A stretch of 64,000 nt of DNA from Spirochaetia bacterium (GTDB lineage Bacteria > Spirochaetota > Spirochaetia > SZUA-6 > Bin103). The position numbers and the translations under genes were made by a program. The notes beneath the pieces were generated by a model. That model did no database searches and had not been told where the DNA came from. It saw only the letters and a program-made list of their open reading frames with translations. The DNA is taken from contig CBDBDQ010000005.1 in the NCBI GenBank assembly GCA_965203905.1, forward strand, positions 7,721,192-7,785,191. The letters run 5' to 3'. Below, in pieces: positions 1,506 through 10,961 of the stretch; position 1 is the first letter of the stretch; every line of letters begins with the position of its first letter.

Positions 1506-1823
1506 TTGATCCGGAGCGTATCCGACCCGATCTGGTCGATCAAGTCCGCCAGGGCGTGGCGCCTCGCACAGGGCGCGCGGCCCAACCGCCCAACCTCTTG
1601 CATGCCTCGAGCAAACGGAGTAGTTGTGTGCTATCCAGTCGTGACCATCAAGACCAACGGAACTCAGCGGCGCGCCCGCGACATCAGCACAATGGTGATA
1701 CCTGCGATCCGGCAAAAGGGCCCATTGGCCGATTCGGAACGTGTCCCAAGGCCCCTTCGACACGGCAAATGAGATCGTCAGTAGGGATAGGCGTGTAAGC
1801 ACACATACGCTTATGATGGATGT

Positions 1824-2048
1824 ATGAGTACAACTCGATGGTCGCTGGTGGTCTCCGAAGCAACTGACCGCGCCCTGCGTACCTTCCTTGCGAGTCGGGG
1901 ACTGAAGAAAGGGCATCTCTCGCAGTTTGTTGAGGACGCCGTGAGAGAAAAGCTGTTCGATCTGACCGTCGCAGAAGTCAAAGAGCGAAACGCGGGACAA
2001 ACCGATGCTGTCATGCAGGCCGTCGAGGAGGCTCTCGAGCGAGCCTGA
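1824..2048 (+). CDS. Ribbon-helix-helix antitoxin
   Basis: 74 aa, RWSLVVSEATDRALR...LSQFVEDAV strand-helix-helix pattern, immediately upstream of a PIN gene. Confidence 0.7.
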   Translation: MSTTRWSLVVSEATDRALRTFLASRGLKKGHLSQFVEDAVREKLFDLTVAEVKERNAGQTDAVMQAVEEALERA

Positions 2049-2051
2049 GGC

Positions 2052-2461
2052 GTGCGTGTTGTGCTCGACACCGGAATCCTCGTTGCCGCTCTGATCACAC
2101 GGACACACCCCCAGACCAACTGTACCAGCTGTGGCGCAAGCGACGGTTCACGCTGATCACGTCCGAGCCGCAGTTAAGCGAGTTCCGGCGCGTCACTCGT
2201 TACCCGAAGCTGCGTCGGTTTCTGAAGGCTCACGAAGCGGGGACCCTCCTGCGCGGGGTGCGTGCGCGAGCTGTTGTTGTCCCAGGGCTGCCACAGATCG
2301 ATCTTGTCGACGACCCCGACGACAATCTCGTGCTTGCCACCGCTCTCGCCGGCGAGGCTGACTATCTGGTCACCGGAGATCGGCGTCACCTACTGCACCT
2401 GAAGAAGGTGCAGCACACGAGGATCTTGACGGCACGTGAGCTCACAGAGTTGCTCAACTGA
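2052..2461 (+). pseudogene. PIN-domain toxin with one frameshift near 2097 (may be a sequencing error)
   Basis: MRVVLDTGILVAALIT then shifts frame to TDTPPDQLYQLW...DPDDNLVLATALAGEADYLVTGDRRHLL. Confidence 0.8.
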
Positions 2462-2669
2462 CCGTTCCCGACGAACGGGACCGGCCGATGGCCATACCAA
2501 GTTCTCGATCCCATCCCTGGTGTTGCGTTGCGCGCCCCGAGCCGAAGTTCGTTGCAGGATAGATGGCACGGAGTGTGGGCGGTGGGTGTTCCGTTCCGAG
2601 CGTGTCCCTGGAGCGGAACGCGGGAACGGCGGAACGGTGGGCGGATGAGAGCGAGTAGGCCGTTGGGAG

Positions 2670-3605
2670 TCAGGCCGGCAGGTGCCAGCCGGCGGGACCG
2701 CGGACGGCGAGACCGCGTTGCTGGAGAGATTGGAGGGCGAGACCGAGACGAGCGTTGTTGACGCGCAGGCGTTGGCGGAGGGCGGTCCTGGAGAGCGGCT
2801 GGCCGGCGGTGCGAAGAGCGGCGCGCACGGCCTCGGTGAGCGGGGGCGGCGGAGCGGCGGCACCGTCGACGATCAGCGAGAGGGGCTGGTGGGCGCCGCC
2901 TGAGAGGCGCAGCAGGAGGGGATCGGGAGCGGGAGCGGCGCGGTGTTCGACGGTGAGTTGGAGCCGGTCGTCGGCCCGCCGCACGAGGTAGCATGCGGAG
3001 TCGGTCCAGGCATGCAGATCGGAGGAGCCGCGCAGGGACTGGCCGAGATTGCGGCGCGAACGCTTGGCCATGTGGTGGACGAGGACGACCGCGAGCTGAT
3101 GGCGGCGATTGATGGCGCGCAGAAAGCCGAGCAGGGAAGAAATGTCTGAAGCGCTGTTTTCGTCGAGGGAATGAAGGCGGACCAGGGGGTCCAGCAACAG
3201 CAGCGCCGGGCGGATGCGTTGCACGGTGTGGTCGAGAGCGAGCCGGTCGCGCTCGGTGTCGAGGCGCAGCCGGTCGGCCGTGACGACGTGCAGGTCGAGG
3301 CGGGACAGGTCGAGGCCGCGGTGGCGGCACAGGTGGGCGACGCGGTCGCGGACGCGCGGCAGAGCATCCTCGGCAAGATAGACCAGGGCGGGTCCGGTGG
3401 CGTCGACCGGGAACCGCCCGAGGGCGGGAGTGCCGGACGCGACCGAGACGGCGAGATCAAGACCGAGCCATGACTTGCCAACCTTGGGGCTGCCGCCAAT
3501 CACGCCGACAGCGGCGGTGGTCCAGAGGTCGCGCACCAGCCACTGGGGAGTGTCTGGTTGGGGATCGATGGCATGGACCGGAACGGTGGGCAGGGGACCG
3601 GTCAT
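2670..3605 (-). CDS. AAA_25 / RepA-like RecA-fold ATPase with C-terminal winged helix
   Basis: Walker A GSPKVGKS, YLAED, Walker B LLLLDP, VLVHH, LRGSSDL motifs; ATGA overlap with upstream ATPase. Confidence 0.8.
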   Translation of the reverse strand: MTGPLPTVPVHAIDPQPDTPQWLVRDLWTTAAVGVIGGSPKVGKSWLGLDLAVSVASGTPALGRFPVDATGPALVYLAEDALPRVRDRVAHLCRHRGLDLSRLDLHVVTADRLRLDTERDRLALDHTVQRIRPALLLLDPLVRLHSLDENSASDISSLLGFLRAINRRHQLAVVLVHHMAKRSRRNLGQSLRGSSDLHAWTDSACYLVRRADDRLQLTVEHRAAPAPDPLLLRLSGGAHQPLSLIVDGAAAPPPPLTEAVRAALRTAGQPLSRTALRQRLRVNNARLGLALQSLQQRGLAVRGPAGWHLPA

Positions 3606-4405
3606 GGCCACAGCGACTTGCGAGCGGCGATCACGTCGCCGGCGCTGACGGTGGAGTGGGACGACTTGGCGGCGCGTTGCAGGGCGGCCAGGGCGAGGCG
3701 GTCGATGGCGCGCAGGTTGCCGCGGCTCATTTCGAAGATGGTTTGCTGAGCGTCGCCGTCGAAGGGATTGGTGCGCGCGCCGGCGAGGGTGCAGCGATGT
3801 TCGAGGTAGGCGCAGGTTTCGTCACGGGACAGGAGGCGCAACTCGGCGTAATGCGCGAGGCGGTGCGCGATGGCGGCTTGCTCGGGACGCCGCAGGAGCT
3901 GTCTGAGAGCAGGCTGGCCGGCGAGCACGAGGGACACGACGAGGCGACTGTCCATTTCGAAGTTCGTGAGGACGCGCAACATGGCCAACGATTCGGGGCG
4001 CAGGTCATGTGCTTCGTCGAGCAGGATAACCGGGCGCATGCCGTCGCTGGCGGTGTGATCGAAAGCGCCCTGCAACTTGCGCACGAGGGCGGGATAGATG
4101 CCGGTGGGAGAGAGGCCGCAGGCGACGGCGATCTCCTTGCACAGGTCACGCTTGGAGAGGCCGGTGACCTTGACGTAGTGGACGCTGAAGCGCACCTCCG
4201 GGAGAGCGGCGACGAGCATGCGCAAGGCGACGGTCTTGCCGGTGCCGGCGGGAGCGATGAGTGCGGCGCTCATGCGCTCCTGGACGGCCTCGGTGAGAGC
4301 GGCGGCGACCTGGGCCTGAGGTTCGAGCGGGAAGCACTCGCGCACCTGCAACTCGCGGGTAAAGGGGGTCTTGCGAAAGCCCAGTGTGCTGAGGTCGTGG
4401 CTCAT
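3602..4405 (-). CDS. ExeA/TnsC-like AAA+ ATPase (transposition helper)
   Basis: LGFRKTPF N-terminus, APAGTGKT, ILLDEAH, LAGQP, SRGNLRAID; coupled to transposase. Confidence 0.85.
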   Translation of the reverse strand: MSHDLSTLGFRKTPFTRELQVRECFPLEPQAQVAAALTEAVQERMSAALIAPAGTGKTVALRMLVAALPEVRFSVHYVKVTGLSKRDLCKEIAVACGLSPTGIYPALVRKLQGAFDHTASDGMRPVILLDEAHDLRPESLAMLRVLTNFEMDSRLVVSLVLAGQPALRQLLRRPEQAAIAHRLAHYAELRLLSRDETCAYLEHRCTLAGARTNPFDGDAQQTIFEMSRGNLRAIDRLALAALQRAAKSSHSTVSAGDVIAARKSLWP

Positions 4406-5799
4406 GGCTGCTGCTCCTGGTCGTGGCGGTCGTCGTGCGGGTCGCTATAGCCGCCGTCGGGATCGACCAGCGGGCGGGTGTCGTTGGCGTAGGCGATGCC
4501 GGCCGCGGTGGCGGGGAGTTCCTCGCCGTCGTCGTCGTCAGTCGGTTGCGGCGCGCTGCCGGAGCCGCGCGGTGAGGTCGCGTTGGCATGCGGGTCCACC
4601 TCGGCCAGTTCGATCATGCGGCCCTGGTGCAGCACCCACAGGCGCCCGTCGAGCACGTGGCGCGCCACCTCGACCCAACTGCGGGCGCTGCGGAGCGGTG
4701 CTTCCCACAACCGACCGCCGGCCTTGATGACGTGATCGTTGGAGACCTTGTGCAGGGCGCGCACCACGAAGCGGCGGTACAGGTCGGCGTCGTCGGTCGG
4801 GAAGCGCAGCTCGCGTCCCTGCTCCCAGCGCTGGCGCGGGGTGATCTCCTTGCCCAGAGTCTCGTGCGGGGTGTCGTTGTAGCGGTTCAGGAAGTGGCGC
4901 AGGCGCAGTGTGAGTGCCTGGCAGGCGGGGTCCACGTCGGCGGCGCCGTCGAGGGCACGCAGCGCCTAGTCGTAAGCGGTGCGGTGGAAGCGCTCGACGG
5001 CGCCGTGGCCCTCGGGATACCTGCTGGCGCCGTGGATCAGCAAGGCGCCCAGGCCGCCCTGGACCACCGCCAGGGTGTCCTTGGAGATGAAGCCCGGTCC
5101 CTTGTCCAGGTAGTACAGGTCCGCGCTACCGTGCCGCATGACCGCTTCGTGGAGGCCGCGCAGGAACAGTTCGCTGGACTCCGCGGTGCCCACCACCACC
5201 TCGAGGCCGTAGCGGGTGGCATCGTCGAGGAAGAACAGCGCGACCCGGCGCAGCCGCGCCGCGCCGGCGCGGAAGTGCTTGCCGTCGGCGAGCACGCACT
5301 GCATACGCTCGGCGTAGCGCCAGCGCCGGGTGTCGCCGTCACGCTTGTGCGGTCGCACGCGCGTCGGCAAACCCATCCGCCGGCAGGCGCGCCACACCGT
5401 GGTGCGATCGATCTTCAGGTCGACCGGGATGATGCCGCGCTCGCGCGCCCGGCGCACCATCTCCGGTACCGAGGCGCGCGCATCACGCTGCTTCTCGGTG
5501 CGCACAAAGGTGACCAGCTTGGAGCTCAGCGCCAGGGAAGTCGCGATGCGGGTGCGCGGCTGCGGCTCCAGGGCAGCCAGGCCGCCGGCGGCCCAGGCAG
5601 CACGCCAGCGTTGCAAGGTGCGTACGCTGACCCGCAGCGGGCGACCGTTCAGGTCCACGCGGTCGCGACCGGCAACGTGCCGTACCGCGGCTCCCGCGGG
5701 GTATCCGCGCAACACCAGGGCCTCCACCTCGGCGACTGCCAGGGAGCGCACCAGCGCGGTCGCCGAGGCCGGTAACGGGGGACGCGTCGAGTCATTCAT
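4402..5799 (-). pseudogene. DDE integrase/transposase (rve core plus Mu-transposase-like C-terminus) interrupted by in-frame TAG at 4966-4968
   Basis: HTH (SVRTLQRW), VLADGK, FLDDATRY, YLDKGPGF, GAVERFHRT motifs; downstream ORF 4402-4935 is in the same frame. Confidence 0.85.
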
Positions 5800-6653
5800 G
5801 CGCCTACCGTAGCGCCGCCCGAGGCTGCTCGAACGGGCGCTTTCGTGGCCGGCGGCGCCCGTCCCCGAGGGCTGCCGGCCATCTCCTTCTCCCGCGCTTC
5901 GGAACGACCCGTCGCGGTAACGATCCAGCTCTTGCCGGCCTGCTCCCAGCGCGCCACCAGCCGCGGGCGCGGTGGCCCCCACAGATCGCTGACCGCACCC
6001 GCCGCTCCCATGCGGTCCCCCAGCGTGGCGCTCACCGCCAGCGCCACCAGCACCGCCACGATCGCGGCTCCGCGGCTCTGCCAACTGCGCTCCCAACTGC
6101 GTGCTCCCGCGAGCACCGTCATGGTCGCCACTCCCAGCCGCGTCGCGATCTGCTCTCGCTCCCGCTCCTCCAGTTCCGGGCTCACCCCGGTCAGCCGTCC
6201 GGCCATCTCCAACCGCCGCTCCTGGGTACGCCGGCATGGCGTACTCGACGACCGCCACCAGTGCAACTCCGATGGCCACCCCTTCTCCTGCTCCGCATCC
6301 TGCGCTGCCCTGAACAGCGTCGCCTGCCACTGCGGTTGGCTGCTGTCAGCGTCGAGCAACAGCTCGCCGTCTGTGCTGTACCGCACCACAGCCACCCGTC
6401 CGTACGGGTAATGTCCCGGCGGATACAGCGTGTAGCGCCGCCCCCCATGCTCCCGGCACCCCACCACCGCTATCGGGTAGCACGGTCCGCTCTTGCGCTC
6501 TCGGTAATGATCGACGAAGATGGCACACGTCTGCTCCCCCGTGGCGTAGACGCATCGTGTCGGCAGCACGGCGTGTAAGGCTCCGTCCTTATCCGTCTCG
6601 TAGCTCGTCGTCGCGTACGGGAGCGCGTGTGCCTCGGTTCCACCCTCGGACAC
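5796..6653 (-). CDS. Cys/His-containing hypothetical protein, first gene of the transposon
   Basis: 285 aa, GAGAGG-like RBS before GTG, ATGA overlap with transposase; C...C...CxxH...YTLYPxGxxPY pattern. Confidence 0.65.
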   Translation of the reverse strand: MSEGGTEAHALPYATTSYETDKDGALHAVLPTRCVYATGEQTCAIFVDHYRERKSGPCYPIAVVGCREHGGRRYTLYPPGHYPYGRVAVVRYSTDGELLLDADSSQPQWQATLFRAAQDAEQEKGWPSELHWWRSSSTPCRRTQERRLEMAGRLTGVSPELEEREREQIATRLGVATMTVLAGARSWERSWQSRGAAIVAVLVALAVSATLGDRMGAAGAVSDLWGPPRPRLVARWEQAGKSWIVTATGRSEAREKEMAGSPRGRAPPATKAPVRAASGGATVGA

Positions 6654-6704
6654 TCGCTGCCTCTCGTGTGCCTCGACTCGCGGTCACCCGCCCGCCGAGG
6701 CTGC

Positions 6705-6742
6705 AAAAAAGTGAAGCCCGCAGCATTCACCTGCTGCGGGCT
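6705..6742 (-). terminator. Intrinsic terminator hairpin in transposon leader (IS110 target)
   Basis: Minus strand AGCCCGCAGCA-GGTGAA-TGCTGCGGGCT followed by TCACTTTTTT. Confidence 0.7.
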
Positions 6743-6758
6743 CCTTAGAAACACATAG

Positions 6759-8144
6759 TCAGGCGGCGTGAGGTACGAGATCGAAGCCGAGAGAACGGGC
6801 TTGGTTGCGCAGGTTGCGCTCACGGCGTTTGCGATCCTGGCAGTGCTGTTGCGAGAGCAGGTCGTCGTCGTAGAGGACATGGTGCGTGACGAGGTGGTAG
6901 ATGATGCGAGCCATCTTGTGGGCGGTGGCGGTGATTGCCTGTGGAGTGCCGAGGCGGGCACGCTTGCGGCGAAAGTGATCTCCGAGCGAGGAGTGGCTCC
7001 GATACAGCGTTTGGGTTGCGATGCGGAGCGCCTGAGCGGCGCGATTGGTGCCGGGTCCGGTCTTCGAACTGATGATCTTGCCGCCGGTGATCTTGTTGTG
7101 GGGGCAGAGATTCAACCAGGAAGCAAAGTGCGCGGCGTCGGGAAAGCGTGACAGATCGGCGCCGATTTCGGTAAACAAGGTAAGGGCAGTGCTCTCGCCG
7201 ATGCCGGGAATAAGGGTCAGGTCGGTACCGAACAGGCGCGTGAGGTGGCGGCTCAGCACGAACCGTTCAGACGTACTCGGGGAGCTGGGAGCCTCACCTT
7301 CGCCGGGAACCGCGCTGCGGTCGGCGCCGGAGGGAACGTCAGGCGGCACATTCGGGTCCGTCTCCAGGGTGCCGATCATGGTCTTGATCTGCTGATCGCA
7401 GGTATCGATGAGCTGCTGGTAGTGCGCATAGGTCAGCCGCGCTTGCTGCAGGGTAAACAGATGCTCGGGACGCCAGTCACCTTGCAGTGCCTTGATCAAC
7501 GTCTCGCGGCTGGCTCTGATCCCGCGATGGGCCAGCGCGGCCAATCGTGCTGGAGCCCGTTCCCCGCCCAGGATGGCGTCGGTGATGGCCATGCCGGTCA
7601 CCCCGGTCAGATCAGAGATCGCATGGTGCAAATGGATGTTCATCTGATCGTAGGATTTCTGCATATGCAGCACGCTCCGCGATGCCGCCTTCACCAGGGT
7701 GTCGCGATGGCGCAGCAGCGTGCGCAGCGCGCACACCTCGTCGGGCGGGCGGAAGGAGCCGCTCAGCAGTCCCACCGAATGTAGATGACGCAGCCATTCG
7801 CAGTCGGCTACGTCGCTCTTGCGACCGGGCACCGAGCGCACATGACGGGCGTTGACCAGTACCACGTCGAAGCCACGAGCTTCCAGGATCTGGAGCACGG
7901 GTATCCAGTAGACGCCGGTAGACTCCATAGCGACCGTGGTTACCCGGCACTCGCTGAGCCAGTCGGCCAACGCGTGCAGGTCGCTGGTGAACGTGGGGAA
8001 ATTACGGATCGGCACCGCGGCGCGATCTTCGCGTACTGCGGCGTACACCGCGGTGGCGCCTATATCCACACCTGCGGCGTCGGGATGGACCTGGTTCGGC
8101 TGCGCCGGGCGTTTGCCGTTGCGTCGCCTCTTACGTCGTGCCAT
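6759..8144 (-). CDS. IS110-family recombinase/transposase
   Basis: AAGVDIG, VAMESTGVYW, RKSDVADCEWL (DEDD RuvC domain), IPGIG, HFASWLNLCP; GGAGG RBS. Confidence 0.95.
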   Translation of the reverse strand: MARRKRRRNGKRPAQPNQVHPDAAGVDIGATAVYAAVREDRAAVPIRNFPTFTSDLHALADWLSECRVTTVAMESTGVYWIPVLQILEARGFDVVLVNARHVRSVPGRKSDVADCEWLRHLHSVGLLSGSFRPPDEVCALRTLLRHRDTLVKAASRSVLHMQKSYDQMNIHLHHAISDLTGVTGMAITDAILGGERAPARLAALAHRGIRASRETLIKALQGDWRPEHLFTLQQARLTYAHYQQLIDTCDQQIKTMIGTLETDPNVPPDVPSGADRSAVPGEGEAPSSPSTSERFVLSRHLTRLFGTDLTLIPGIGESTALTLFTEIGADLSRFPDAAHFASWLNLCPHNKITGGKIISSKTGPGTNRAAQALRIATQTLYRSHSSLGDHFRRKRARLGTPQAITATAHKMARIIYHLVTHHVLYDDDLLSQQHCQDRKRRERNLRNQARSLGFDLVPHAA

Positions 8145-8179
8145 GAAAAGCCTCCACTATGCACCAAGTGCAGCGGCCG

Positions 8180-8345
8180 AGGCGTGAACAAGAGGCATTC
8201 TCCTTACCGGGATGGCCGTCGCCGACAGTGCCGGTGCCGACCTCACCAATGACTACGCCACCTGCCTCGGGACCAAGCTTCACAACGGGTTCGCCACAGC
8301 GGGCGGTCACACCAATGTTCGCGCGGCCTACTTTCGCGCCCCACT
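8180..8345 (-). ncRNA. Putative IS110 bridge RNA (approximate limits)
   Basis: Long non-coding end upstream of transposase with two CATTGGTG motifs, an 8-nt match to the target flank (8277-8284) and a 7-nt match to the donor end (8200-8206). Confidence 0.7.
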
Positions 8346-8719
8346 CGGTGAAATATCGCCCCCAGTATATCTCGCTCCCGTTTCTTCCATGATCACTCCG
8401 GACCGTCAGGCCCGGTAGGATAGCTTCACACTTTACGCCCCCGTCGCTTCTCCGCCTACGCCATCGTCACCGCAACCGGTACTCCCTCACCCCGCCCTTG
8501 GGCGCGCAACGCAATACCTGGCCTTACACCAGGCGGCGACTTGGCCCAACTCGAACGCCCCGTGCATCGGCTTCGCTGACCGGCCAGGTCACGCCCATCC
8601 TGCGCACGCCGCTCAGAAAGTGAGCCATTTGCCGCTTAGAAATTGACCCACCCCCGGCAGGCGAACCCTCCGGGTGATAGTTTGGTGTTGCTGAACATCA
8701 AACTGAACCGGAGAGAAGG

Positions 8720-10183
8720 ATGCTGGGGATGGATCGCGTATACGTTATCAGACACAAGTGGCACCAAGAAGGGCTGTCGATCCGCCAGATAGCCCGTGAC
8801 CTGGAGATAAGCCGGAACACGGTGCGCAAGTACATCGACGATGCCGGCGGGCCGCGGCAGCCGGCGCGGTCGAAGCGGGCGCGGCCGGTGCTGGAGAAGG
8901 TACACGAGCGGATCGACGAGATCCTGGAGGAGTGGAGTACGCGCACCACCGACAAGCAGCGCGTCACCGGGACGCTGGTGCATCGCCAACTCCGCGAGGA
9001 GGGGTACGAGGTGGGCAGCACGACGGTGCGCTCCTACTTGGCGGAGCGGCGCCGGAAGCGGCAGGAAGTGTTTGTGCCGCTGATCTGGCGTCCCGGCGAC
9101 GCGGCGCAGGTGGACTTCTTCGAGGTCACCGTCGAGGTCGCGGGGGAGCGGCAGAAGGCGTGGTTGTTCGTGGTGCACCTGATGTACTCGGGGCGCGACT
9201 TCGCGTGGCTGTACGAGCGCTGCAACCAGATCGCGTTTCTGGACGGCCATGTGCGCGCCTTCGAGCACTTCGGCGGGGTGTCGGTGCGCTGCATCTACGA
9301 CAATCTCAAGGCGGCGGTGAAACGGAGGCTGGGGGTGGAACGGGAACTGAGCGCTCGGTTCCTGGCGTTGTGCTCGCACTACCTGTTCGAGCCGTGCTTC
9401 GCGCGCCCAGGCGAGGGGCATGACAAGGGCGGGGTGGAAGCGCGCGGCAAGAACGTGCGCCTGCAGCACCTGACGCCGATTCCCGGTGGCCCATCGTTGG
9501 ATGCGATCGCGACCGAACTGCTGGAGCACCTGGACGCGGCCTGCGACACGCGCGCTGACCAGGACGGTCGCACCGTGGCACAGCGTTTCAGCGAGGAGCG
9601 CCCCTTGTTGCGCCCGCTGCCGCAGCGATCATTCGAGGCCCGCCAGGTCGAGCCGGTGGCGGTGAGCCGCCAGGCGCTGGTGCGGGTGGACGGCGCGCGC
9701 TACTCGGTGCCCAGTCACTGGAGCGGCAGCCAGGCGACCGCCTACGTGGGGGTGGCGGACATCATCCTGGAGTGGCGCCAGGAACGGATCACGGTCGCCA
9801 AGCAGCCGCGCGGCACGCGCGCGGTCCAGTATCGGCACTATCTGGACGAGTTGGCGAAGAAACCGCAGGCGGTGCGCCAGGTGGCACCCGAGCTGATGGA
9901 GGAGCTTGGTACTCCCTACGTGCGGCTGTGGAAGCTGCTGTCTTCCCGCTACGGCGAGCTGGATGCCGCGCGGGTCGTCGCCAAGCTGGTCGGCGCCATC
10001 GTCGACCATGGCGAGCAACGGATCAGTGAGATCCTCGAGCAGATACTCGCCGCGCCACCGCCCGTGGCGACCGAGGACAACCCGCCGCCGGCCACGGTGC
10101 CGGTGCCGGTCGCCCTGCAGCGCTATCAGGTGGAGTCGACTCCTGCATCGGCCTACAACGTCCTGATGGTGAGGGAGGACTGA
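8720..10183 (+). CDS. istA: IS21 transposase IstA
   Basis: N-terminal HTH SIRQIAR...[27 protein letters not shown] motifs. Confidence 0.93.
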
Positions 10184-10184
10184 T

Positions 10185-10961
10185 ATGAGCGAACTGAACG
10201 ATGCGCTGATCGAAGAGCACTCCAAGACTCTCAAGCTGCCGGCGCTGCGACGTGAGTACGGTCAGCTCGCCCGCCAGGCGCGCGCCGAATCCTGGTCCTA
10301 CGAGGAATACCTGCGCGAGTTGTTGGACGGCGAGGTCCGCGCCCGCGAAGCCAGCACCACAGCACGCCGGCTGCGCGAAGCACGGTTCCCGGACCTCAAG
10401 ACCCTCGGCCAGATCGACTGGACTGCCATGGAGGGCGTCTCCAAGCAGCAGATCCTCGAATTGGCAACCTGCCAGTTCGTCGAACAGCCCGCGGACGTGG
10501 TCATCGCCGGGCCGATCGGCACGGGCAAATCGCATCTCGCGATCGCCCTCGGCGTCGAAGCCGCCCAGCGGCGCTTCCGGGTGCTGTTCGTGAAAGCGGC
10601 CGACCTGGTCCGACAACTCCTGGAAGCCAGGGATGACCGCGAACTCGGTCGTCTCCAGCTCCGGTTGCGCCGAGTGAACCTGTTGATTATCGACGAGTTG
10701 GGGTTTGTCCCCTTTGACCGCGCCGGCGGCGAGCTGTTGTTCAACCTCGTCGCCGATCGCTACGAACGACGCTCGACCATCGTCACCACCAATCTCGCCT
10801 TCGGCGAGTGGGTCAGCGTGTTCGCCGATGAGAAGCTCACCACCGCGCTGTTGGACCGGCTCGGTCACCACGCACACATCATCACCACCAAGGGCCTCTC
10901 CTACCGCACCGCTGCCCGGCGCCGCGGCGCCGCCAGCGAGGCCGAAGAGCCCGACAACTGA
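10185..10961 (+). CDS. istB: IS21 helper ATPase IstB
   Basis: [28 protein letters not shown] motifs. Confidence 0.95.

Follow-up and report, generated by a model that had tools for sequence, protein, structure and literature searches.

The 64,000-nt stretch of a Spirochaetia bacterium contig considered here (CBDBDQ010000005.1; hereafter the window) carries at positions 2521-8516 a copy of a mobile element that we regard, with a probability of roughly three in four, as a dead member of an autonomous 4.3-kb DDE transposon family combining a Mu/TnsB-like transposition core with a helicase module. Its four minus-strand genes code, in order of transcription, for a protein that we term orfA, a DDE transposase, an AAA_22 ATPase and an AAA_25 ATPase, and we distinguish its two tips as the D end (2521, adjoining the AAA_25 gene) and the A end (8516, adjoining orfA). 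The organization of this copy, in coordinates of the window, is as follows:

2516..2520, no strand: left target-site duplication CCTGG; the empty sites L078 and L079 have a single CCTGG
2521..2537, plus strand: D-end terminal inverted repeat (adjoins AAA_25), TGTTGCGTTGCGCGCCC; repeat pair I7, with the same end in copies L002-L004
2551..2567, plus strand: D-end second site GTTGCAG-N6-TGGC, about 31 nt from the tip; end alignment, 80% consensus
2588..2635, no strand: pentamer palindrome (GTTCC)2-N17-(GGAAC)3, flanked by the D-end sites and the AAA_25 stop codon
2670..3605, minus strand: AAA_25 ATPase of RepA/DnaB-like RecA fold, winged helix at the C terminus; ATG at 3605, in-frame GTG at 3611; Pfam AAA_25
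3602..4405, minus strand: AAA_22 AAA+ ATPase (ExeA/MuB/TniB-like transposition regulator); Pfam AAA_22, PHROG 296
4402..5799, minus strand: DDE transposase with an in-frame TAG at 4966-4968; NCBIfam IS481 below cut-off, PHROG 310, TnsB profile
5796..6653, minus strand: orfA, 285 residues, zinc-ribbon-like (CCCH) domain at the N terminus plus a helical domain; no known family
6711..6742, minus strand: GC-rich hairpin upstream of orfA, less the last bases (8424-8430), which the IS110 separates from it
6743..8423, minus strand: IS110-family insertion, transposase at 6759-8144; NCBIfam match 1.2e-74
8460..8476, minus strand: A-end second site GTTGCGG-N6-TGGC, about 40 nt from the tip; end alignment
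8500..8516, minus strand: A-end terminal inverted repeat (adjoins orfA), TATTGCGTTGCGCGCCC; pair I7, further copies, related loci
8517..8521, no strand: right target-site duplication CCTGG; empty-site comparison

The boundaries were first apparent from a repeat search, which paired 22-nt arms at 2516-2537 and 8500-8521 (91% complementary; pair I7), each made up of the 5-bp CCTGG and a 17-nt repeat with a single mismatch between the two (G versus A at position 2). Since this was one among 72 inverted pairs in 8 kb and is no proof alone, independent proof was sought in other copies, in empty sites and in the occurrence of the ends elsewhere. The source genome (G000) holds three more copies with the same 17-mer at their borders (L002, L003 and L004; labels of the form L0xx denote loci throughout), which measure 4321, 4321 and 4306 bp and have all four genes open. 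L002 and L003 differ at 1 base in 4321 (99.98% alike), L004 is 95% like both, and the window copy is 88% like L002/L003. Their flanks read ACGGT/ACGGT, CCGGT/ACGGT (one mismatch) and GCGGT/GCGGT, the duplication being perfect in three of the four copies of this genome and matching at 4/5 bases in the remaining one. The left flank in the window (1735-2520) is itself a repeat of the source genome, and in two of its paralogs (L078 and L079) it passes into the right flank (8517-8600) via a single CCTGG; these are true empty sites, which prove precise insertion with a 5-bp duplication. Furthermore, among the contigs of public sequencing runs, one skips exactly the L002 copy, while others diverge exactly at both of its ends (runs X1 and X2 gave identical figures and are probably one data set). 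The family has thus been recently active in the source genome, and an earlier note on this DNA, made from its letters, was right to describe a precisely bounded transposon: the 17-bp terminal inverted repeats with one mismatch recur as pair I7, in the three further copies and in the related loci described below, the CCTGG duplication is confirmed by the empty sites, and the size of about 4.3 kb that it gave for the element minus the IS110 agrees with the 4306-4321 bp of the intact copies.

The copy in the window is itself dead, because its transposase gene is interrupted by the in-frame TAG and because a 1.68-kb IS110 (about 6743-8423) sits 91-94 bp inside the A end. Its four genes nevertheless retain the coupling by ATGA stop/start overlaps that the earlier note had read, at 5796-5799, 4402-4405 and 3602-3605, as direct reading of the sequence confirms.

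The same assembly of genes and ends recurs far beyond the source genome. Among 8000 candidates scored, 1671 transposase homologs were found at E ≤1e-3, many of them 65-70% identical and on 4-5-kb contigs. A scan of one genome per species yielded 62 loci, of which the 38 with a transposase at least 44% identical are here called related loci; they come from metagenome-assembled genomes (MAGs) with titles such as Gemmatimonadales, Chloroflexota, Dehalococcoidia, Nitrospiraceae, Myxococcales, Poribacteria and Rhodothermales, among others. Where the contig leaves room, orfA is found in 31 of 32 loci (missing in L042) and AAA_22 in 29 of 30 (missing in L040), and AAA_25 is found in 23 of the 24 loci with at least 950 bp of downstream room (missing in L028). 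The four genes stand together in 22/38 related loci of many phyla, at 45-90% identity, and the 17-mer end (≤3 mismatches) is present in 32/38. The earlier note had named a transposase unlinked to the AAA_25 gene and these ends as what would speak against its view; the linkage held on both counts (23/24 loci with room and 32/38, respectively). We conclude that the family is, to judge from these homologous loci, widespread in uncultured bacteria of many phyla.

In the lineage of the host the family is distributed patchily, with hits at 70% identity or more in 4 of 31 relatives (G000 counted), and in a phylum sample of 301 genomes G000 alone has a match at E ≤1e-30, an occurrence that fits horizontal spread. 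A tblastn search against 72,556 plasmids returned 35 records only, with a best identity of 28.5% and no mass of Tn402-bearing plasmids; the best matches are two-gene units in actinobacteria that couple a DDE protein to an "ExeA family" or AAA ATPase. Eighteen public runs from ten studies (X1-X18), each with at least a third of the element's sampled words, are labeled as coral reef, biofilm, sponge, coral and marine metagenomes or as coded organisms; runs X19-X22, with small shares, were excluded from the habitat reading, and contigs were examined for X1-X3 and X19 only. The phyla carrying the element are typical sponge symbionts, a hint of spread inside communities of this kind. RNA-library contigs of X19 cover parts of three genes at 90-95% likeness, which does not show transcription.

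The transposase defines the core of the system. Residues D183, D243 and E280, with a DD(37)E spacing, are invariant in the alignment of homologs, establishing the DDE transposase gene that the earlier note had recognized, and the protein, which bears N-terminal helix-turn-helix (HTH) domains, is intact in L002, L003 and L004. It matches PHROG 310 at 7.3e-25, and its only significant solved relative is the TnsB of the type V-K CRISPR-associated transposon (CAST) ShCAST, with a profile match at 5.7e-6; the structure of Mu A gave no match to its profile at E ≤1, and Mu-transpos_C_2 was matched in just 1 of 16 clade members, at 0.079. In a fold model with a mean predicted local distance difference test score (pLDDT) of 53, a beta-strand domain at residues 355-407 reaches about 75. 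The transposases of a sister clade (L060 and L065) pass the Pfam cut-offs for both rve and Mu-transpos_C. From these profile matches, the transposase core appears to be Mu/TnsB-like.

The AAA+ partner of the transposase is evident in the third gene, whose product matches Pfam AAA_22 at 1.3e-21 and PHROG 296, "DNA transposition protein", at 5.8e-33, a group that we take to hold MuB itself; this is the gene that the earlier note read as an ExeA/TnsC-like ATPase. The ExeA-like NCBIfam model TIGR03015 is matched at 1.7e-29, below its cut-off, the PDB offers generic AAA+ matches only, with ShTnsC at 0.053, and IstB_IS21 (PF01695) is absent among the Pfam matches of the protein. A predicted complex of the AAA_22 protein with orfA scored 0.12 against a mark of 0.32, which speaks neither for nor against contact.

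The first gene, which the earlier note called a Cys-rich open reading frame (ORF), codes for a protein of no known family: orfA falls into no family of Pfam (0 of 22 members have a consistent match), NCBIfam or PHROGs, and in the homolog alignment C43, C66 and H69 are invariant, C34 nearly so, along with several invariant arginines. Its model, a confident one (pLDDT 78.6), shows a small beta/zinc-ribbon domain followed by a six-helix domain, for which Foldseek against the PDB gave nothing convincing (best E 0.45), a protein atlas held no usable match, and a wide fold search reached at best a Z of 4.5 with CARD/death-domain helix bundles, below the noise guide; TniQ was not among the rows of that search, which proves nothing. 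By sequence, none of 22 homologs matches Pfam TniQ even at E ≤5 and there is no PDB match, though a very remote kinship may exist. Likewise, orfA occupies the position of TnsA and shows no invariant acidic/lysine triad. Among 1.84 billion proteins its family comprises 907 representative clusters at E ≤1e-3, the best 150 of which span 154-370 residues. Because it is kept in variants that lack AAA_25, we infer that orfA is a zinc-ribbon accessory belonging to the transposition core.

The GC-rich hairpin upstream of orfA has the form GTGAAGCCCGCAGC-N8-GCTGCGGGCTTCAC, followed by a short T run; in the window the IS110 landed in its 3' arm, and it is intact in L002 (about 1460-1500), L007, L009, L012 and L018. 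In the end alignment more distant relatives have a hairpin at the same place with changed stem bases. It may serve as a block on read-through transcription from outside. A promoter/terminator scan of L002 found 0 promoters, and its simple terminator search did not flag the hairpin.

Both ends of the element are built from two sites. An alignment of 20 ends of each kind, at an 80% consensus, shows a terminal site TGTTGCGTTGC..CCC and a second site GTTGCAG-N6-TG.C, the latter corresponding to the sub-terminal motif shared by the two ends in the earlier note (2551-2567 and 8460-8476), which proves to be conserved across phyla. The distance of the second site from the tip is about 40 nt at the orfA side versus about 31 nt at the AAA_25 side, and the two ends are therefore unlike. 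The TG ends of the earlier note stand for one side: the D end opens with TG in 20/20 aligned loci, whereas the A end of the window copy starts with TA and its second base varies among G, A and C across the loci.

The fourth gene codes for the RepA-like second ATPase that the earlier note had proposed, an assignment now anchored by Pfam AAA_25 (1e-33) and by the RSF1010 RepA structure 1g8y, its only PDB match (1e-5 by sequence and 3.3e-15 by profile). Residues K44, E79/D80, D139, D148-E149-N150, H177/H178 and R192-G-S-S-D are invariant in 20/20 sequences; by analogy with RepA, K44, E79, D139, H177/H178 and R192 presumably act as the Walker A lysine, catalytic glutamate, Walker B aspartate, sensor histidine and arginine finger. 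At the C terminus, a region of 70 residues that includes an invariant LRVNN.RL stretch resembles a winged helix, and one homolog has a precomputed GntR match. In the two sister-clade loci the AAA_25 protein is about 420 residues long and begins with a DnaA_N domain (7.6e-12 in L060 and 1.1e-8 in L065, above cut-off). DnaA itself contacts the DnaB helicase through its domain I.

Adjoining this gene, and common to it across loci, is a palindrome of two GTTCC, a spacer and two or three GGAAC. GTTCC and GGAAC were tallied in 70-nt windows downstream of the last gene with a mark of at least three motifs: 20 of the 25 loci with AAA_25 have three or more within 60 nt of its stop codon, two reach this number further off and three fall short of it, as against 0 of the 14 loci without a detected AAA_25 gene (three of these 14 contigs stop within about 550 nt after AAA_22). 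Among the 20 positive loci are L060 and L065; their ends differ and their transposases share only about 24% identity with that of the element, against 41-44% for their AAA_25 proteins. Hence, it is the AAA_25 gene, and not the transposase, that the palindrome accompanies. The palindrome arms show neither sequence variation nor compensatory change, a behavior more in line with a protein-recognition site than with an RNA stem. A further pattern concerns bounded relatives that have neither AAA_25 nor palindrome (L028, L031 and L038; transposase 48-51% identical). Together, the gene and its site seem, on present sequence comparisons, to be a modular accessory of the family.

In L028 (221-4133), a 124-residue helical ORF follows AAA_22 in place of AAA_25. 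The sister clade (L060:1-4977 and L065:1-4764, from MAGs titled Acidobacteriaceae and Planctomycetota) has the order zinc-ribbon ORF, 541-residue transposase, AAA_22, DnaA_N-AAA_25-winged-helix protein of about 420 residues and GTTCC/GGAAC palindrome, and the ends of L065 are TGTAGCCGCCCGCG. Its upstream ORF (P0246 and P0247) shows a CxxC..CxxC pattern with a weak DUF6431 match only, and is unrelated in sequence to orfA (hhalign probability against the orfA profile 0.08%). A second multi-copy relative in genomes close to the host, G012 (10 matches) and G001 (6 of 14 matches), consists of a transposase of about 534 residues (about 31% identical) followed by AAA_22, an arrangement also seen in L046-L056; since its copies within one genome score identically, it too has probably been recently active.

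These components can be arranged into a mechanism by recourse to the named families. The transposase, which resembles Mu A, TnsB and TniA in its HTH domains, its DD(37)E core and its C-terminal beta-barrel, would bind the terminal and sub-terminal sites, pair the two unlike ends, nick their 3' ends and join them to the target with a 5-bp stagger. The AAA_22 ATPase would take the MuB/TniB/TnsC role in target capture and transposase activation, with orfA as a zinc-ribbon accessory of this core. Because the element has no TnsA-like 5' nuclease and no resolvase, the joined intermediate would then have to be replicated or repaired, as is likewise the case in Mu, Tn5053 and the type V-K CASTs. At this point the RepA-like hexameric-helicase homolog could bind the GTTCC palindrome beside the D end via its winged helix, open or load onto the fork of the strand-transfer intermediate and recruit replication, making the module an element-encoded counterpart of the host restart pathway used by Mu. 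The helicase module suggests, by its sequence relationships, element-driven replication; the specific proposal that AAA_25 is a site-specific helicase or loader which, at the palindrome, turns the strand-transfer fork into a replication fork free of the host restart machinery is tentative, and we hold it to be possible rather than probable.

Several points weigh against this reading. In the transposase, rve (12 of 16 clade members) and rve_3 (16 of 16) are matched below the Pfam cut-offs, the IS481 model, at 91.7 bits, outscores any Mu/TnsB model, and the fold model cannot be relied on in the catalytic core (pLDDT about 30). Most AAA_25 homologs have GxPKxxK[ST] as their Walker A motif, in which C or A replaces the canonical G before the lysine, and AAA_25 appears not to be needed for basic movement, because the bounded relatives L028, L031 and L038 lack it. 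Alternatively, the palindrome might act as an operator or as a structure at the transcript end. Outside the source genome, 18 loci have both ends and flanks; four show perfect 5-bp duplications (L012, L019, L029 and L039), two show 4/5 bases, two a match displaced by 3-4 nt, and ten none, many of the duplication-less loci being 4-5-kb metagenome contigs whose flanks may be chimeric. Finally, all the mechanistic steps are inferred from the named families. The two displaced matches belong to copies on a complete chromosome, L007 (about 4962-4970) and L018 (about 4977-4986); 3-4 nt separate the orfA-side 17-mer from the matching flank bases, and this end looks as though it carried a few additional bases.

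One might prefer to see a divergent IS481-family insertion sequence (IS) whose transposase moves alone by copy-out-paste-in, the other three genes being passengers idle in movement. The best curated IS model is indeed that of IS481 (5.6e-26), a weak LZ_Tnp_IS481 match appears in the sister clade, and the element is short with simple terminal repeats; yet its 91.7 bits are far under the cut-off of 224, each end has two unequally spaced sites, and the AAA+ partner with its PHROG 296 match and the C-terminal barrel are marks of Mu, Tn7 and Tn5053. Moreover, passengers would not be expected to be kept as the four ATGA-joined genes are, together in 22/38 loci at 45-90% identity, and we judge this explanation very improbable.

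The AAA_25 module invites two further interpretations. If it and the palindrome formed a small replicon, an excised circle could be copied alone, in the manner of a transposable plasmid or satellite, and then reinsert; a RepA-like helicase homolog with a winged helix, an iteron-like palindrome, the DnaA_N fusion of the sister clade and the many metagenome contigs of about element size would all accord with this. Against it, genes for a primase, a polymerase or partition are absent from the element, some bounded variants do without AAA_25, and the element-sized contigs carry flanks past both ends and are not circular permutations, which leaves the replicon a rather improbable solution. The contigs of the public runs contain no end-to-end joint, which says nothing on circles, as rare forms are dropped from contigs. 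Somewhat easier to entertain, and still unlikely in our view, is that AAA_25 is a regulator or target chooser, acting through palindrome-bound repression or termination, target immunity, or steering to forks or single-stranded DNA. The position of the palindrome, directly behind the last stop codon, would be apt for an operator or terminator, the invariant arms without compensatory change would suit any bound protein, and other RecA-fold ATPases act as switches. Nevertheless, the helicase-type catalytic residues are all invariant, the sole solved relative is a replicative helicase, the DnaA_N fusion points to the replisome, and the element already has an AAA+ target regulator.

Transposons that couple a DDE transposase to an AAA+ regulator (Mu, Tn7/CAST, Tn5053 and IS21) are the main models of controlled transposition and the basis of programmable insertion tools, and the hand-over of the strand-transfer intermediate to replication is well worked out only for Mu, with host factors. 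A compact 4.3-kb family with a helicase homolog, a matching cis site and natural variants with and without the module would make this hand-over directly testable. If the proposal is true, the family would constitute a new functional class in the Mu/Tn7/Tn5053 superfamily, carried by marine and host-associated bacteria of many phyla. The family also defines two unannotated protein families, orfA (907 representative clusters) and the transposase clade (more than 1600 homologs), and the conserved ends provide a simple marker for finding the family, which has apparently crossed many phyla.

Other repeats lie around the element in the window. The insertion target (1735-2520 plus 8517-8600) is a repeat of about 870 bp with a ribbon-helix-helix (1824-2048, RHH_6 3.8e-24) and PIN_3 pair, of which the source genome has at least three copies and the relatives G001 and G005 have further ones. 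An IS21-family element at 8601-10961, with IstA at 8720-10183 (rve, Mu-transpos_C_2) and IstB at 10185-10961 (IstB_IS21 1e-72), starts about 84 bp beyond the right end of the transposon, at the point where the likeness to the paralogous empty sites stops; three different mobile elements thus lie within 9 kb. At about 1666-1762 is a repeat of about 95 bp with many copies (85-96% identity) in G000, G001 and G005, which may be a miniature mobile element or one like the repetitive extragenic palindromic (REP) sequences.

Tested against the named systems, the element resembles the Mu, Tn5053 and Tn7 group and, as far as its sequence features go, fails each named family on at least one tested feature, in keeping with the earlier note, which could not place it. 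That note had also recognized no TnsA, TniQ, resolvase or cargo gene; Pfam, NCBIfam and PHROGs likewise detect none of the TnsA, TniQ and resolvase families in the four proteins, and four genes are all that lie between the ends. In Tn5053/Tn402, a DDE transposase, an AAA+ ATPase and a zinc-binding accessory share one operon, with a 5-bp duplication, no TnsA and short repeats. The present element is like these transposons (TniA, TniB, TniQ, TniR) in operon type, 5-bp duplication, lack of TnsA and short terminal repeats, but has no resolvase or res site, its orfA is without TniQ similarity, and it adds AAA_25 and the palindrome. With phage Mu it shares the 5-bp duplication, several unequally spaced sites per end and the AAA+ partner (PHROG 296) of the A/B pair; moreover, its strand-transfer product would need replication, there being no 5' nuclease and no resolvase, and the sister clade passes Mu-transpos_C. 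Unlike Mu, it has no phage structural or lysis genes, packs four genes into 4.3 kb and brings its own helicase homolog; Mu relies on host restart proteins.

The core of the type V-K CASTs (TnsB, TnsC and TniQ) also lacks TnsA, and its TnsB is the closest solved structure (5.7e-6), whereas the element has no Cas12k, guide RNA or TniQ, and ShTnsC reaches only 0.053 against the AAA_22 protein. Similarly, for Tn7-like elements, the TnsB profile at 5.7e-6 and ShTnsC at 0.053 are set beside the absence of any TnsA family match in the four element proteins. IS481 supplies the best-scoring curated IS model for the catalytic core, below cut-off (91.7 versus 224 bits), but IS481 has a single gene, against four here, and the present element also has an AAA+ partner and a C-terminal barrel. 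IS21 (IstA/IstB) likewise pairs a DDE transposase that has a barrel domain with an ATPase, while the AAA_22 of the present element has no IstB_IS21 match, against 1e-72 for the neighboring IstB, and its gene set and ends differ. As regards Tn552 (p480/p271, BinL), the element has no resolvase, and Staphylococcus is not among the ten organism groups named for the plasmid tblastn matches of the transposase, Tn552 itself not being in the comparison.

In the full-text literature, judged mostly from listings and with ISfinder and TnCentral outside the scope, we found no description of the four-gene architecture, nor did passages of PMC10293859 and 10.1101/2024.11.13.623437 contain one. Apparently, then, the family is undescribed. 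The only solved relative of its AAA_25 protein, the RSF1010 RepA hexameric helicase (1g8y), shares the catalytic motif set. RepA is a plasmid protein that lacks a winged helix at the C terminus, iteron binding in RSF1010 being the task of another protein; the AAA_25 of the element, in contrast, is a transposon protein with a C-terminal winged helix. We know of no counterpart to a RepA-like second ATPase with its own cis site, nor to the DnaA_N fusion. New in this analysis are the unequal spacing of the two conserved sites in each end, the palindrome linked to AAA_25 and the fusion of DnaA_N to AAA_25 in the sister clade.

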